Part shown: positions 4,194-11,278 of the stretch, piece after piece | Numbering within the stretch: the first letter of the stretch is position 1 | How the letters are laid out: the number at the start of each line of letters is the position of its first letter | NCBI GenBank assembly: GCA_035277165.1 | Contig: DATEKX010000069.1 | Coordinates: 1 to 24,271 of the forward strand | Length of the DNA stretch: 24,271 nucleotides | Direction: 5' to 3' | Source of the DNA: Blastocatellia bacterium | GTDB lineage: Bacteria; Acidobacteriota; Blastocatellia; UBA7656 | Notes under the pieces: model-generated | The model's input: the letters and a program-made list of their open reading frames with translations, nothing else | Databases searched by the model: none | Told to the model about the DNA's origin: nothing | Program-made: the position numbers and the translations under genes

Positions 4194-5252
4194 TTATTTG
4201 TTTTGAAACTTCGCAATGCGACCACGCGGCCCGGCTGCCCAACCCGCGCCTGCGGCGAAACTCACAGAGTTGTAATTTTCCCGGTCAAGACCTCTCCAAT
4301 AATTGCCGCCGTCGTTTGAATAATCCGAACCCGATGTTCCGACCGCAACGAGCACGACGCCGCCTGTGCCCGGAACATATGCGACCGCCGAGCGATACCC
4401 TTTTGGCTGTGTGCCTTGTGCGAGCTTCCACGTTCGTCCGCCGTCGGCTGTCGTCGCCACATTGTTCACGGGCTCTTCGGGCCTGCTGTAATCGCCGCCC
4501 GCGACGATGCCGTTCCATGCATCTTTGAATGCGATTGAAAAGATTCCCGCCGATTGCGTGCCGCTTGTGATCGGAGTCGCTGCGACCTGCCATGTGCGGC
4601 CTCTGTCGGTCGAGCGAAACACGCGCGCAACAGAGCCGCCGCTTGCAAACCACACGTTGCTTTTGCCTTGAACGGTTATACAGGTGCCGCTCGCCGCAAA
4701 GCCTCCCTCGCCCTCGATAGCCGTCGGAAGGTTGCTGGCAGGAACTTGATTCCACGTCTTGCCGCCGTTGTCGGTTGTGATGATGAGAAAACGGCCATCA
4801 ACCGGATCGCTCATCGCGATGCCGTGATCGCGATCCCAGAAGGCCATCGCGTCGAAGAAGCCTTCAGCCGTTTTATTGGTGAATTGCAGAGTCCAGTTTG
4901 CGCCGCCATCAGTCGTTTTATAAATCCTCGATGATTCGCCCTTGCCTATGCTCAACAGGTAAGCAGTGTTCTTGTCGAATGCGTCAACATCTCTGAAATC
5001 CAACTCGCCAGCGCCCGCCACAGTTCCCGCGCGCCAGGTCTTGCCGCCGTCGGTCGTTCGCGTGTAAGTGCCGCGAGTCCCGCTCGCCCACGCGACCTTA
5101 GAACTAACGGCGCACAGTCCGCGAAAGTCTGCATTCGTGCCGCTCGACTGCAAGTTCCATTGCGCAGGTGTCGTGTCGCCTGCGAGCAAGAAAAAGATAA
5201 ACAAAAGACCGGCTTTAATTAATCTCATTCGCATCCATTTGCCTCGCGTCAT
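4194..5252 (-). CDS. YCF48-like / BNR (Asp-box) repeat beta-propeller secreted protein
   Basis: Signal peptide and repeated Asp-boxes (TTDGGKTW, TTDGGANW, TDNGGKTW, STDRGRTW, TADGGRTW, SNDGGNYW). The start may be slightly downstream (MRMRL). Confidence 0.85.
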   Translation of the reverse strand: MTRGKWMRMRLIKAGLLFIFFLLAGDTTPAQWNLQSSGTNADFRGLCAVSSKVAWASGTRGTYTRTTDGGKTWRAGTVAGAGELDFRDVDAFDKNTAYLLSIGKGESSRIYKTTDGGANWTLQFTNKTAEGFFDAMAFWDRDHGIAMSDPVDGRFLIITTDNGGKTWNQVPASNLPTAIEGEGGFAASGTCITVQGKSNVWFASGGSVARVFRSTDRGRTWQVAATPITSGTQSAGIFSIAFKDAWNGIVAGGDYSRPEEPVNNVATTADGGRTWKLAQGTQPKGYRSAVAYVPGTGGVVLVAVGTSGSDYSNDGGNYWRGLDRENYNSVSFAAGAGWAAGPRGRIAKFQNK

Positions 5253-6211
5253 GAATTGCTTGATGTTTCGACTCGCTCAATTATGTCGATACGCCGCACG
5301 TCAATCGTCAGCATATCGTTTTCCAACTGGCGATTGAATACGTTAGCGAACCGTGCGTTCCAGATTACCTCGTCAGCTTTGTAAGAAGACCGCGCGTGAA
5401 CGGTCTGCGAAAATGTCTCGTCAATGCCCGTCAAAAGAATCAGAAACTCCGCATCCGTCCGGCGCAGGTCTTCCTGCGTCAGGCCGTAAAGCGGACTGGT
5501 CTCGTCAACCGGATGCACAATCGTCCAGCTCAAGGGGAAGAAGACTACCTTGTCGCGTTCAAGTGTTAAAGGATAAAAACGGCGGACGCTCTTTCCGCCT
5601 TCATCTTTTTCAAATTGCGCGAAAAGGATTTTGGCTTCAAGCTCGATGATTTGATTAGTGCGCGCGTTTGTGATGCGAAACTCAAACGCCGTTATGTCTC
5701 CGTAAGGCGCGACGATGGCTCGTTGGCTGAATATGATCTTAGCCGTCGGTCTGGAAAACCTTGCGAACAACAATCCTGTGGCGAGCGCGAATCCAAGAAG
5801 GCCGACTAAAGACTCGATAGTGACGATCACGTGCGCAGCCGGTCCCGTGGGGATGATGTTGCCATAGCCGATTGTCGCGAACGTTTCTACGCTGAAGAAG
5901 AACGCGCACAGAAAATCGTTTTTGAAAGTCACTTCCGGCGAAGTGACCAGCGCGCCCGGCCCGCATGCCATGTAGGCGAATGCGAAGATGAGGTTGCCGA
6001 TGAGGTAAAAAAGCGCGACGAGGCTCAAAAATTTCGACCATGACATGGTCAGCAACCGATGATAAATACTGAGCGATGTCCAGAAGCTCAACCCCCGGCG
6101 CGCGACGTTGAAGCTGCCATCTCGATTTAAGAGGCGTTGTCGGCTTTCGTGCGCGACCACCGAGCCAAATCCCAGATCGCGATTCTCTTCTTCTTTGCTT
6201 GCACGGCGCAT
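5249..6211 (-). CDS. Inward-rectifier potassium channel (KirBac family)
   Basis: Two TM helices around the filter ETFATIGYG; FARFSRP; Kir cytoplasmic domain (FEFRITNAR, FFPLSWTIVHPVDETSPL, FSQTVHARSSY). Confidence 0.93.
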   Translation of the reverse strand: MRRASKEEENRDLGFGSVVAHESRQRLLNRDGSFNVARRGLSFWTSLSIYHRLLTMSWSKFLSLVALFYLIGNLIFAFAYMACGPGALVTSPEVTFKNDFLCAFFFSVETFATIGYGNIIPTGPAAHVIVTIESLVGLLGFALATGLLFARFSRPTAKIIFSQRAIVAPYGDITAFEFRITNARTNQIIELEAKILFAQFEKDEGGKSVRRFYPLTLERDKVVFFPLSWTIVHPVDETSPLYGLTQEDLRRTDAEFLILLTGIDETFSQTVHARSSYKADEVIWNARFANVFNRQLENDMLTIDVRRIDIIERVETSSNS

Positions 6212-6298: not shown

Positions 6299-6392
6299 GT
6301 AGGGGCAGGGACAAGCCCTGCCCGGATCGCCGACAGGCGATAATTAGTCATGGTCTTACGACCATCCGGGCAGGGACAAGCCCTGCCCCTAC
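6299..6392. repeat. Pair of REP-like palindromic units (GTAG...CTAC flanked)
   Basis: GTAGGGGCAGGGACAAGCCCTGCCCGGAT (6299-6327) and ATCCGGGCAGGGACAAGCCCTGCCCCTAC (6364-6392); each unit folds as GGGCAGGG-ACAAG-CCCTGCCC. Confidence 0.75.
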
Positions 6393-6517
6393 ATGACATG
6401 CCAACCGCCCTGTGGGCCGAATCGGAAATCAATCCATCCTTGCTAGAACGCGCGCTGATAACGTATGCTGGCGCTTCACTCGCATCAAAGACATTAAACC
6501 TTTCAGGATTATTTCTC

Positions 6518-7846
6518 ATGAATGATCGCCGCGAATTGTTCGGCTGGTACATCTATGATTGGGCAAACTCTGCTTTCTACACGGTTGTAGTGACAGTCTT
6601 TCTCGGCCCCTATCTGACTACTGTCGCGGAAACGGCGGCTGACGCCGATGGATTCATCTACCCGCTAGGCATAGGAGTCTCGTCAGGTTCTTTCTTCTCT
6701 TACGTTGTCTCTGTGTCGGTATTTTTTCAGATGCTCTTTCTGCCTTTACTGGGCGCTATCTCGGATTACTCGAATCTGAAAAAACAGATGCTGGCTTTCT
6801 TTGCCTACACAGGCTCGTTTGCGACGATGGGGTTATATTTTCTGGATGGCGACCGTTATATGCTGGGCGGTGTGCTGTTTCTCGTAGCAAACTTCAGCAT
6901 CGGCGCTTCTTTAGTTTTCTACAACGCCTACCTCAACGATGTCGCAAGCCCCGACCGCCGGGACTCTGTTTCGTCAATAGGCTTTGCATGGGGTTACATT
7001 GGCGGCGGGTCGTTGCTGGCAGCAAACCTCGGGCTTCTTTTTAAAGCAGAATCTTTGGGACTCAGCCGTTCGCATGCGGTTCGTATCAGCCTGTTGTCAG
7101 CCGGATTATGGTGGGCCCTGTTCACGCTTATTCCAATGGCGCTTCTCAAGCGCAGGCGGGCGCAAAAGAGCCTGCCGCCCGGAGAGAGCCATCTGAAAGT
7201 AGGACTTAAACAGCTCAGGCATACCCTGAAAGATTTGATTCACTATCCGCAGACGCTGCTGTTTCTGCTTGCGTTCCTGCTTTACAACGATGGCATACAA
7301 ACGGTCATAGCGCTGTCGGCGCAGTTCGGAAGTAAAGAGCTTGGACTTGAACTCTCAACGCTTACGGCAACAGTCCTTGTCGTGCAATTCGTCGCCTTCT
7401 TCGGCGCAACTATCTTCAACTTCATCGCAAAAAAAGTGGGTACGAAGCGGGCCATCATCATCAGCTTGATTATATGGATAGGCACGATCATCTATGCTTA
7501 TGCTGCGCTCAGGACTGCGCGCGATTTTCTGATCATGGGCGCAGTCATCGGCCTTGTGCTTGGCGGGAGTCAGGCGCTCAGCCGCTCGCTTTATTCGCTG
7601 ATGATCCCTAAGGGAAAGGAGGCCGAGTATTTCAGCCTCTATGAAGTGAGCGACAAGGGGACTAGCTGGCTTGGGCCGCTGCTGTTCGGGCTGGCATATC
7701 AATTCACAGACAGCTATCGCATCTCGATTCTTTCGCTGGTGATATTTCTGGTTGTCGGACTCGCGCTGTTACTTTTTGTCAACGTTAACAAGGCGATTAA
7801 GGAAGCAGAAGGCAGTCAGCAAAAGGCGGAAGCCACAGGGCAGTAG
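6518..7846 (+). CDS. MFS transporter, UMF1/Atg22-like family
   Basis: GWYIYDWANSAF N-terminal signature, about 12 TM helices, GGSQALSRS motif. ATG 6518 chosen because the ORF-track extension to 6350 runs through the REP repeats. Confidence 0.9.
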   Translation: MNDRRELFGWYIYDWANSAFYTVVVTVFLGPYLTTVAETAADADGFIYPLGIGVSSGSFFSYVVSVSVFFQMLFLPLLGAISDYSNLKKQMLAFFAYTGSFATMGLYFLDGDRYMLGGVLFLVANFSIGASLVFYNAYLNDVASPDRRDSVSSIGFAWGYIGGGSLLAANLGLLFKAESLGLSRSHAVRISLLSAGLWWALFTLIPMALLKRRRAQKSLPPGESHLKVGLKQLRHTLKDLIHYPQTLLFLLAFLLYNDGIQTVIALSAQFGSKELGLELSTLTATVLVVQFVAFFGATIFNFIAKKVGTKRAIIISLIIWIGTIIYAYAALRTARDFLIMGAVIGLVLGGSQALSRSLYSLMIPKGKEAEYFSLYEVSDKGTSWLGPLLFGLAYQFTDSYRISILSLVIFLVVGLALLLFVNVNKAIKEAEGSQQKAEATGQ

Positions 7847-7883
7847 GCAATCGATGCCTGCTGCCCATTGCTTTCTGCTTACT
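7803..7883. repeat. Inverted short tandem heptamer repeats (RGCAGW type) between convergent genes
   Basis: AAGCAGA/AGGCAGT/CAGCAAA/AGGCGGA/GGGCAGT/AGGCAAT followed by complementary CTGCCCA/TTGCTTT/CTGCTTA units. Confidence 0.55.
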
Positions 7884-8475
7884 TCGACGGAGCGTAAAAA
7901 GGATTCTGGCCCGAAGCGTGATCCGTCGAGTCGAATATCTCGCGCACTTGAGGCACCTGATCGCGAATCATTCTTTCGATGCCCATCTTCAAAGTAACGT
8001 CTGCAGCGCCACAGCCCTGACAGCCTCCGCCCATGCGTATGAACACGTTGTCGTCCTGCACGTCGAGCAGTTCGACAAAGCCGCCGTGCGCAGCCACGCC
8101 GGGATTGATCATATCGTCAAGCACTTGCTGCACTCGCGTGCGTACAGCCTCAGACGGCAGCCGGTCGCCTTCGGCAACGGGCGGGGGCGGATTGAAGAAA
8201 GTGCGAATGGCAGAGCCTATGCGTTTGCCAAGCTGTCGCCAGTCTTCATTGCCTGTCTGGGTCACGGCCACACGGTATCCGTCAAGCTCTACTTTCGAGA
8301 TGCCCGGTATTTTGAAAAGCCTGTCGGCCAGGTCGTTGTCCTTCGATTCTTCGGCGCTGGTGAAAACAGCCGAACCGGAATGAACCGGGCGATCAACCGT
8401 GAAACGGCAAACGCGAATATCTTGCTGGTCTACTTCTGCTCTTATCTGAATGTTATCGGCTAATGGTGAACTCAT
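7879..8475 (-). CDS. Nfu/NifU-family Fe-S cluster carrier (Nfu_N domain plus NifU-C domain)
   Basis: C-terminal INPGVAAHGGFVELLDV...MGGGCQGC (CxxC); N-terminal scaffold-like domain (LADRLFKIPGISKV); strong RBS GAAGGAG. Confidence 0.9.
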   Translation of the reverse strand: MSSPLADNIQIRAEVDQQDIRVCRFTVDRPVHSGSAVFTSAEESKDNDLADRLFKIPGISKVELDGYRVAVTQTGNEDWRQLGKRIGSAIRTFFNPPPPVAEGDRLPSEAVRTRVQQVLDDMINPGVAAHGGFVELLDVQDDNVFIRMGGGCQGCGAADVTLKMGIERMIRDQVPQVREIFDSTDHASGQNPFYAPSK

Positions 8476-8573: not shown

Positions 8574-10007
8574 TTAAACTCCTGATCTTTTTTCGAGAGG
8601 ACCAAACTGGTCCCGTGTAGGCTCCGCTCAGCAGAACCATGCTTCGGTAAGACGCGGCGGGCGAAGCTTCATCGGCGCAATATCAGGCGCATAGCGAATC
8701 ATTTCTTCATCGCCGCGCGCTCGATGTGCCGCGTCGCAAATTCGTTGAAACGTAAAGCCGGAGTCTTCATTTCTGCGAGCCGCCTGCTCGACTATCCGAA
8801 CAACCTGTTTGTGTAGCTCGTCCATCCGTGGGTCTGTGTGCGACCAGTTGTAACTGAACGATTCTTGCGCAAGCGGCCCAAGCCACGCTTCGGTGCCGGG
8901 TCGTGAAACAAGCAGCGAACCGGGCGGCACAAGCAACCGAATGCTGTATTGCACAGGGTCAACATGATCTATGAGATTGTGCGAGCGAACGAAATCGAGC
9001 ACTTCAATAAAATCATCAATTGTAGTCCACGGCGTGAAGGACACGAAAGACGGCCTGAGCGCGATGCCCGCATCGCGAAGTATGTGAAGCGCACGGCCTA
9101 CATCCCCGCGCGCGTGGCCCTTTTCGAGATGTGCGAGAACAATGTCGCTCAACGACTCAACCGCAGAGACCACGAAAACGCAGCCCGCGCGGGCAAGTTC
9201 TGCGATCAGCGAGCGATACTTGATTATGTGCTCGACCTTCGCCGTGAAATCGAAAGTCAGTTCGGGAAACTCTTCGTGCATTGCGCGCGCGATTCTAAGG
9301 CTGTGCGTCGGGCCGTTTAGAAAATCAGGGTCGCCGAATGTAATGTGACGAGCGCCCGACCCAACAAGCTGGCGAATGTCTTCGAGCACAACCTGCTCAG
9401 GCACGACGAAGAAGCGACCGTTGTAAACAGGTGGAATCGGGCAGTGCGTGCAATAGTGAAGGCATCCGCGACTTGCTTCGACGTAGCCCGCAAGCTGCTG
9501 CTCGCCGTTGTGCTCAAGCTTGGCGTAACGTTCGAGCGCGGGAAGTGCGCTGCGCTCTGGAAGCGGAAAATCCAGCCGCGCAAGCACAGGCAGCTTTTTC
9601 GCGCTGACCTGTGACCCTTCGTCTATCTCTTTGATCAGATCAACAAGCGACTGCTCAAACTCTCCGCCAATTACAGAATCGGCCACATTATTGAGCAGGT
9701 AATCCGCGTTGAGCGAAGCGTACAAGCCATAAAAGCAAATATGTGCGTGAGGATTGATGCGGCGAATCGTTTCGCCAACGCGCAGTCCCAACCTCAAGGC
9801 CGTGTGCATCGGAACCGATATGCCGATGAAGCGCGCGCGCTTCACTTTCTGCTCATCGAAACCTTCGACTGACACATCCATCGCTTCGGCCTCGTACCCG
9901 GCGCGACGCAAAAATCCCAGCGGCACGGCGAGGCTCGCAGGCTGATGCCCAAGCTCGTAGCACGAAACAAGCAGGATGGAATCGGTTTTGCCATTCGATA
10001 CATTCAT
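8574..10007 (-). CDS. Radical SAM selenoprotein, CUAEP/CCAEP-tail type, with in-frame UGA (Sec) at 8628-8630
   Basis: CxxxCxxC in EASRGCLHYCTHCP; N-terminal cobalamin-binding-like domain. The ORF-track stop is TGA after WFC; read-through gives WFC-U-AEPTRDQFGPLEKRSGV, ending at TAA 8574-8576. The family name is recalled from curated annotation, not searched. Confidence 0.88.
8598..8627 (-). promoter_or_regulatory. Putative bacterial SECIS element
   Basis: mRNA reads UGA-GCGGAGCCUACAC-G-GGACCA-GUU-UGGUCC-U: a 6-bp stem plus G.U pair, with the loop G 21 nt after the UGA. Confidence 0.7.
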
Positions 10008-10045: not shown

Positions 10046-11278
10046 TTATTCGATTATGAACTCAAGCCGCGAATGAGCTTCACGAAGCGCGGCTTCGGCT
10101 CTTTCGGCGGTGGCGGCGCGGCTGAAGATGAACCCCAGATAGCTCGCGCCTTCCGGCGGCGGCTGAATTTCCTGCGTGATGTGCGCGCTGATGATTACGT
10201 CTTCAACGCCCATCACACGGCGAGCCTCGTCCACGCCATTGACTTCGCGCAGTATGCCTGAGCGAGGAACTGGAATCATCATCACGCCTGATGCCTGAGC
10301 TTCTCGCTCGATGCGGCTTACATCTTCGCCCAGCGCGTGGCGAATCAACACTTCTTCAAGTGAAGCCCCTTCGCCGAATCTGAGCGCACGCGAGCACAAC
10401 CCGCCGATGGCGCGCGCAGCCACTTCAATCACCCACGGCCCTTGATCGTTTACGCGCAGTTCTGCGTGTACAGGGCCTTTCGTCATGCCCATAGCGCGCG
10501 TTGCGGCTGCCGTAGTCTCTATAACCTGCTGCTGAACTTCCGAAGAGAGGCGCGAAGGAGTCACGTAGATTGTTTCCTCGAAGAAAGGCCCGTCAAGTGG
10601 ATCGGGCTTATCGAAAATTGCGAGCGAGCGAAACCGGCCATCAGTGACAAGCCCTTCGACTGCAACTTCAAAGCCCGGAATGAACTCTTCGATCAAAGCT
10701 TCGCGAGCCAGAGCGCCGCCGCGCCGCGCAATGTGCGGCTTACTGACGATACGGTCAAGTCGCGCGATTGCTTCGACCAATGCTTCTTCCGTGTTGGCTC
10801 GCATCACTCCGCGACTCGTCGAAAGAAAGACAGGTTTGATCACGCAAGGATAAACGACGCGTGCGGCAACCAGGCGCGGGTTTTCGTCAAGCGAGACGGG
10901 CCAGTAGCGCGGCACACGCACGCGGGCGCGGCTCAAAACTTCGCGCATCAAGTGTTTGTTCTTTGCCGCGCGCGCTGACTCTACGGGATTATGTTCAAGA
11001 CCGAGCGTCTGTGCGATTGATGAAGCGACCACAGCCGTATCTTCATCAACAGGGATGACGGCATCAACTTTGTGTTGCGCGGCGTACTCTGATGCTTTGC
11101 GCGCAGATTGTGCAGGGTCGAAGAAATCGAGCGTCAACAAACCTTCGGGATTTTGCGCTGCAAGCGTGCTGGGCTGTTCGGTAGCCGCGACAATGTTGAC
11201 GCCCAGTTTGAGCGCCGCATCCATAAATGCTTTCGTGCGATATGTTGTTGTGGGCAGAAGTAAAAGGACTCTCGGCAT
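10046..11278 (-). CDS. ATP-grasp domain protein (L-amino-acid ligase-like)
   Basis: KHLMREVL, YPCVIKPVFLSTSRGV, LIEEFIPGFEVAVEG, HAELR and VIEVAARAIGG, plus a C-terminal extension typical of LAL-type ATP-grasps. Confidence 0.88.
   Translation of the reverse strand: MPRVLLLLPTTTYRTKAFMDAALKLGVNIVAATEQPSTLAAQNPEGLLTLDFFDPAQSARKASEYAAQHKVDAVIPVDEDTAVVASSIAQTLGLEHNPVESARAAKNKHLMREVLSRARVRVPRYWPVSLDENPRLVAARVVYPCVIKPVFLSTSRGVMRANTEEALVEAIARLDRIVSKPHIARRGGALAREALIEEFIPGFEVAVEGLVTDGRFRSLAIFDKPDPLDGPFFEETIYVTPSRLSSEVQQQVIETTAAATRAMGMTKGPVHAELRVNDQGPWVIEVAARAIGGLCSRALRFGEGASLEEVLIRHALGEDVSRIEREAQASGVMMIPVPRSGILREVNGVDEARRVMGVEDVIISAHITQEIQPPPEGASYLGFIFSRAATAERAEAALREAHSRLEFIIE

Follow-up and report, generated by a model that had tools for sequence, protein, structure and literature searches.

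Background

The curated NCBIfam family NF040546, named 'CUAEP/CCAEP-tail radical SAM (seleno)protein', was listed as uncharacterised, with a rare Cys-Sec motif, by Haft & Gwadz (bioRxiv 10.1101/2022.07.06.499078), who argued that Cys-Sec motifs indicate the handling of heavy atoms; this is the sole mention of the family that we found in the literature. Since both the NCBIfam entry and this listing describe it so, its status as a selenoprotein family is already part of curated annotation, and the recoding, the family and its selenocysteine have to be considered as known.

The closest characterised relative of the family, as judged from the profile scores given below, is ArsL, the enzyme that forms the C-As bond in the biosynthesis of arsinothricin. 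ArsL has the canonical radical SAM motif and cleaves SAM to a 3-amino-3-carboxypropyl radical, which is joined to As(III). The cysteines of its C-terminal RCCLKC motif bind arsenic, and are needed for the formation of the product (but not for the cleavage of SAM).

For the recoding signal, the best point of comparison is the SECIS of Escherichia coli fdhF, a stem-loop located directly 3' of the UGA within the coding sequence, whose loop carries G23 and U24.

Results and discussion

A radical SAM gene with an in-frame UGA

The DNA analysed here (hereafter the window, 24,271 nucleotides in full) carries on its minus strand, at 8574..10007, a radical SAM gene of 477 codons plus TAA when it is translated through an in-frame UGA. 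The open reading frame starts with an ATG at 10007, and the automatic call stops at the TGA at 8628-8630, giving a protein of 459 amino acids. This TGA (codon 460, minus strand) is a predicted selenocysteine codon, aligned with an invariant Cys of the CCAEP homologues. It is preceded by the codons for W457-F458-C459 (TGG TTC TGC; 8631..8639, minus strand), all three invariant, where gene calls usually end, and it is followed in frame by a tail of 17 codons (8577..8627, minus strand), AEPTRDQFGPLEKRSGV, closed by the TAA at 8576-8574. Read through, the C-terminus is W-F-C-U-A-E-P-T-R-D-Q-F..., with WFC-U-AEPT at residues 457-464. As far as can be judged from the sequence, the TGA near the end of the gene is almost certainly read as selenocysteine, producing a Cys-Sec-Ala-Glu-Pro tail, and the protein almost certainly ends ...WFC-U-AEPTRDQFGPLEKRSGV, i.e. 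18 residues beyond the ordinary gene call.

A preliminary description of this stretch, made from the letters alone, had read W-F-C-U-A-E-P within 8574-8640, which agrees with our limits to within one base (on the minus strand), and had counted 17 sense codons between the TGA and the TAA, which we recover at 8627-8577. It had also supposed that gene callers stop such proteins at the Cys, and this is what they do: of the 120 top-ranking homologues in the database, 101 have ...RPPRLTEAWFC as their exact C-terminus. The window protein itself is 100% identical to a database entry recorded there as 459 amino acids, ending before the Sec.

Neither the tail nor the hairpin that follows the UGA would be convincing if the window were considered alone. 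An open tail of 17 codons is unremarkable, as 45% of the stop-to-stop runs in the window are at least that long, and the hairpin folds with -10.5 kcal/mol (z = -0.28), with 73 of 200 shuffled sequences equally stable. Each is within chance by itself, and the case therefore rests on the comparison with homologues.

Comparison with homologues

The readthrough protein, scored with U written as C, matches NF040546 with 701.8 bits (cut-off 500), the alignment covering profile positions 1-467 of 468 on residues 11-469, and thus extending across the UGA. It shares with the family the CX3CX2C core, the WFC-U/C-AEPT tail and the alternation between Sec and Cys, and nothing material differs. It is one more member, from Blastocatellia, of this catalogued family, which the preliminary description had named by its tail, and we consider, on these sequence comparisons, that the gene is very probably a genuine selenoprotein gene. 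The gene is present as a single copy in the genome (695.2 bits in a genome profile search, with '1 TGA' inside).

Beyond the homologues that end in ...AWFC, 17 of the 120 best database matches continue as C-C-A-E-P-T-x-x-Q-F... and 1 more has CCSEP at the same position. In alignments of 43 Cys-form homologues, W457, F458, C459, C460, E462 and P463 are invariant, and A461, T464 and Q467 are conserved in at least 90%. The picture is the same at the DNA level. Among the 76 best species-representative loci in which the tail motif could be located, the codon at the Sec position is TGA in 51 and TGC or TGT in 25, and the AEPTxxQ tail is found in frame after codon 460 at every one of the 51 TGA loci, as it is at the 25 Cys-form loci. 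One locus (L081:2372-2416) stands out in that its tail after the UGA reads AEPLRTSL..., with the hairpin one base early, which suggests that a single base was deleted or that this MAG was misassembled there.

A scan for carriers at the DNA level, with one genome per species, recovered the family in at least 594 species-representative genomes, from Acidobacteriota, Nitrospirota, Planctomycetota, Rokuibacteriota, Gemmatimonadota, Poribacteria and other phyla. In a maximum-likelihood tree, Sec and Cys have been interchanged about six times (at least three of these being forced by well-supported branches), with Cys forms nested within the Sec clades of Blastocatellia and Gemmatimonadota. The same tree places two MAGs labelled 'uncultured Clostridia' (L024, L025) inside the Blastocatellia clade, and one labelled 'uncultured Enterobacteriaceae' (L073) inside Nitrospira; to judge from these positions, the three taxon labels are probably wrong.

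The SECIS hairpin

The hairpin GGGACCA/GUU/UGGUCCU is located at 8598..8614 on the minus strand, corresponding to nucleotides 17-33 when the U of the UGA is numbered 1, with G24-U25 in the loop. Its core stem pairs nucleotides 18-22 with nucleotides 28-32, and the loop carries the conserved A23-G24-U25. When the 45 nucleotides from the UGA onwards were aligned for 51 TGA genes, the consensus stem consisted of five pairs, among which C22-G28 is invariant, and the loop opened with an invariant A23-G24; RNAalifold recovers the identical five pairs. Four of the five show compensatory changes, and double-change cells number 52, against 19.3 +/- 3.4 in column shuffles (none of 500 reaching the observed value). 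In control stems whose 3' partner was slid by one to three columns, the covariation was well below that of the real stem in all cases.

All five pairs can form in 40 of 52 TGA genes, a number that rises to 48 when a register shifted by one base, with an AGUU tetraloop, is also accepted, and in none of the 25 Cys genes. As these Cys genes encode nearly the same peptide, the hairpin goes with the UGA rather than with the peptide. In seven loci from Rokuibacteriota, Methylomirabilota and Nitrospinota (L061, L064, L068, L072, L077, L099 and L101), the 3' side of the stem is shifted by one base, so that the hairpin, 17-32 nucleotides after the UGA, has an AGUU or AGGU tetraloop, compared with a loop of 5 nucleotides elsewhere.

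On this comparative evidence, the hairpin is a SECIS. It resembles the E. coli fdhF type in being a stem-loop that follows the UGA immediately and is itself part of the coding sequence, with a loop G-U (here at nucleotides 24-25), and in occurring only where the UGA occurs; it differs from it by a short stem of 5-7 bp, a loop of 3-5 nucleotides and no evident bulged U. A search of Rfam returned no SECIS family covering the hairpin, the sole match being a chance one to sR39 (E = 0.13). The hairpin would bring SelB, together with its Sec-tRNA(Sec), to a ribosome positioned at the UGA.

Selenocysteine machinery and genetic code

The genome, an assembly of 855 contigs that is 84% complete, contains a tRNA-Sec (71.9 bits; anticodon TCA according to ARAGORN), together with selA (579.8 bits), selB (358.8 bits) and selD (391.7 bits), all four above their family cut-offs. 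A genome-wide reassignment of UGA was also considered, and can be ruled out: TGA is the stop codon of 8 of the 18 other genes in the window (where it is the commonest ordinary stop), so that the recoding is local and the code unchanged. No formate dehydrogenase alpha subunit was found above cut-off, and none with an internal stop, in this 84% complete genome; the radical SAM gene may belong to a small set of selenoproteins for which the full Sec machinery is kept.

Several expectations of the preliminary description bear on this part of the analysis. It had put a G-U in the hairpin loop 21-22 nucleotides after the UGA, which is where G24 and U25 lie, and its interpretation of the hairpin as a SECIS is upheld by the compensatory changes and by the fact that the structure is complete only in TGA-bearing genes. 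It had proposed to look in the genome for selA, selB, selD and the tRNA-Sec gene (selC), all of which are there, and in homologues for a Cys at the UGA position (CCAEP) and for conservation beyond it, both of which are seen.

One objection to all this is that translation really terminates at the UGA, so that the enzyme ends in ...WFC and the frame downstream is untranslated. This is indeed how gene callers treat the gene and how the 101 database homologues are recorded, TGA is an everyday stop in this window, and we have seen that the hairpin and the open frame are each non-significant when taken alone. We nevertheless regard it as very improbable, because it would have to account for an AEPTxxQ tail kept in frame at all 51 TGA loci and identical in kind to that of the 25 Cys-form loci, for a hairpin that both covaries and is tied to the TGA, for the full Sec machinery in the genome, and for a curated NF040546 model that extends past the UGA. 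The comparison of homologous sequences shows the recoding, the membership of the family and the SECIS, the recoding being supported to the full extent that sequences allow.

Domains and predicted structure

The radical SAM cluster motif CX3CX2C (C182/C186/C189; 9441..9464, minus strand) is invariant in the homologue alignments, and the protein matches the radical SAM core of Pfam (PF04055) with 49.3 bits. The match of its N-terminal part to the B12-binding domain (PF02310) reaches 31.6 bits, just below the threshold of 32.1. The predicted model (pLDDT 88.4, pTM 0.88, with a pLDDT of only 67-80 in the tail) resembles the two-domain radical SAM enzymes AprD4, TsrM, OxsB, MgmA and MiaB, the best match being AprD4. 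The architecture predicted from this model would be that of a B12-binding-like N-terminal domain, followed by a CX3CX2C [4Fe-4S]/SAM core and by a flexible C-terminal arm carrying the Cys-Sec pair.

Comparison with ArsL

After NF040546, the second-best family for the protein is ArsL (NF040542), with 340.3 bits over residues 11-409. This is below the ArsL cut-off of 450, and all other radical SAM families score at most 50 bits. The two proteins have in common a homology of about 400 residues, covering the radical SAM domain and the putative B12-like domain, and a vicinal chalcogen pair on the C-terminal tail. They differ in that the linker of the window protein exceeds that of ArsL by about 50 residues and leads to WFC-U-AEPT, with no RCCLKC motif (profile positions 415-423 of ArsL remain unaligned), so that its tail offers two chalcogen ligands compared with three in ArsL. 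The genomic contexts differ too: the window gene has no recognised arsM or other ars gene among its neighbours and, in the loci of the family, adjoins genes for an ATP-grasp ligase and for Nfu or DUF169 proteins. No cluster of methyltransferases recurs across the 76 loci.

A search for true ArsL proteins above cut-off was negative in this genome and in 400 other Acidobacteriota genomes, so that the comparison with ArsL is made from profile scores only. Neither sequence nor fold searches returned a solved structure of ArsL.

Gene neighbourhood

On the minus strand, the genes follow each other in the order Nth-like, ATP-grasp (LAL type), radical SAM and Nfu-like, with gaps of 15, 38 and 98 bp. 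The ATP-grasp gene, of the L-amino-acid-ligase type (10046..11278, minus strand; Pfam ATP-grasp_4 and LAL_C2), lies 38 bp upstream of the radical SAM gene, and the gene for an Nfu-type Fe-S carrier (7879..8475, minus strand; Pfam Nfu_N and NifU) lies 98 bp past its TAA; both are conserved partners. A convergent gene for an ATG22-like MFS transporter (6350..7846, plus strand; Pfam ATG22 and MFS_1) comes next. Further away, the minus strand of the window encodes MsrP, the catalytic subunit of a methionine-sulfoxide reductase (1490-2464; 466 bits), a KirBac-type inward-rectifier potassium channel (5249-6211) and a peptidase of the caspase family (C14; 14459-15688), the last with a sub-threshold match to an EACC1-associated caspase model.

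The conservation of this neighbourhood was evaluated by clustering the open reading frames around the 76 loci, 45 of which are well flanked (at least 3 kb on both sides). An orthologue of the ATP-grasp gene (45-76% identity) adjoins the radical SAM gene in 38 of the 75 other loci, and is present in 25 of the 45 well-flanked ones, being missing from 20. A gene of the Nfu type with a conserved CQGC neighbours the radical SAM gene in 29 other loci, and 26 have one for DUF169; one or the other of these two is found in 32 of the 45 well-flanked loci, and at least one of ATP-grasp, Nfu and DUF169 in 35. The association of the radical SAM gene with the ATP-grasp ligase and with Nfu/DUF169 spans phyla. 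The MFS transporter adjoins the cassette in 6 related loci and is kept only in those of the Blastocatellia type. We also considered the Nth-like gene as a member of the unit, and rejected it: just 2 related loci have it alongside, and it probably does not belong there.

Five loci from Planctomycetota (L040, L055, L066, L089 and L100) exhibit a variant in which there is no ATP-grasp gene, and in which the radical SAM gene is followed downstream by genes for DUF169 (in four of the five, it not being detected in L040), for a protein of 166 amino acids, for a PLP-dependent decarboxylase of the Orn/DAP type and for a protein with the FGE-sulfatase fold. This fold is used by EgtB and SenA, which form C-S and C-Se bonds, respectively. 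The clues to DUF169 in the literature (a phylogenetic-profile link to YedE, and a gene adjoining hgcAB in Nitrospina) are limited to these two passing mentions, which we judged too weak to be used. In 11 loci from Nitrospirota (L033, L036, L045, L069, L070, L073, L076, L080, L083, L084 and L092), a conserved open reading frame of 144 amino acids, without any family match, is located in convergent orientation just after the ATP-grasp gene.

A possible function, and its alternatives

Partner genes whose products act on alpha-amino acids are consistent with an amino-acid product, as chemistry of the ArsL type would give. By analogy, we tentatively propose, at a level of confidence that we would place a little short of even, that the enzyme transfers the amino-acid side chain of SAM onto an atom held by its Cys-Sec tail. 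SAM would be cleaved to a 3-amino-3-carboxypropyl radical, as by ArsL, and this radical would then combine with a soft atom, metalloid or chalcogen, bound by the Cys-Sec pair, yielding an unusual amino acid. The ATP-grasp ligase would then couple this product to another amino acid, the PLP decarboxylase would process it instead in Planctomycetota, and Nfu would serve to provide the Fe-S cluster or to repair it. There are several observations that do not sit easily with such a scenario: the protein falls below the ArsL cut-off (340 compared with 450 bits) and is devoid of RCCLKC, ars genes are missing beside the window gene and no methyltransferase recurs near those of the family, AprD4, to which the predicted model is closest, is a 5'-deoxyadenosyl-radical enzyme, and the ATP-grasp gene is missing from those 20 well-flanked loci.

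Another possibility keeps the selenoprotein but assigns it to the conventional 5'-deoxyadenosyl-radical enzymes, in which case its Cys-Sec arm would be a redox pair comparable to that of thioredoxin reductase; the arm would give electrons or an H atom to a radical intermediate on an organic substrate, or resolve it, and would hold no atom of the substrate. The canonical CX3CX2C motif and the radical SAM fold agree with this, as do the absence of an arsenic gene context, the analogy with thioredoxin reductase and the predicted structure, whose best matches (AprD4, OxsB, MgmA and MiaB) are enzymes of the 5'-dA-radical or B12 type. ArsL, however, is the nearest family by far (340 bits, as against 50 or less for other radical SAM families), and is precisely a case where the same canonical motif and fold go together with a 3-amino-3-carboxypropyl radical and with a Cys tail that binds the substrate; we thus consider a redox arm possible, but rather unlikely. 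It seems to us improbable that the protein is instead a cobalamin-dependent radical SAM methyltransferase (class B), methylating a compound that the ATP-grasp ligase produces or consumes. The putative B12-binding-like N-terminal domain suggests it, together with the likeness of the predicted model to TsrM, OxsB, TokK and CysS and with weak matches to PhpK, HpnR and other class B families, but the PF02310 match that underlies the first of these points does not quite reach the Pfam threshold, the class B families are among those scoring at most 50 bits where ArsL scores 340, and the papers on ArsL that we consulted describe no cobalamin requirement. Furthermore, AprD4, the top structural match, is a diol dehydratase and no methyltransferase, and methylation of this kind would leave the invariant Cys-Sec tail with no role.

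The analogy with thioredoxin reductase has itself to be taken with caution. The arms of the mammalian enzyme and of MerA, as well as HgcA and the proteins of the SAO system, resemble the window protein in that two adjacent residues, Cys-Sec or Cys-Cys, sit on a flexible stretch at the C-terminus. All of them nevertheless have folds unrelated to its own, and the window protein has no flavin domain, so that the analogy is one of motifs only. ArsL is a more informative relative than thioredoxin reductase or MerA, in that its tail binds the atom of the substrate.

Conclusion

At the level of annotation, the protein of the window is 18 residues longer than its 459-amino-acid database entry, and the missing residues include the Sec of the Cys-Sec pair that defines the family; most public homologues are likewise cut at the Cys. 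The recoding itself is not new, and the broader biology that it opens belongs to the CUAEP family and is not specific to the window. ArsL, the one canonical radical SAM enzyme from which a 3-amino-3-carboxypropyl radical is known, has no closer relative than this family, and the identity of the family's substrate would show whether the chemistry of ArsL extends beyond arsenic. One may go further and imagine, as an idea that we still find doubtful, that the CUAEP family is a second and far wider ArsL-type branch, in which the atom held by the Cys-Sec tail would be one other than arsenic, for example Se, S, Sb or Te, the product would be ligated to a dipeptide by the ATP-grasp enzyme and, in Blastocatellia, exported by the MFS transporter. 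If this were true, hundreds of species living in soil, in groundwater or in association with sponges would contain an undescribed class of natural products.
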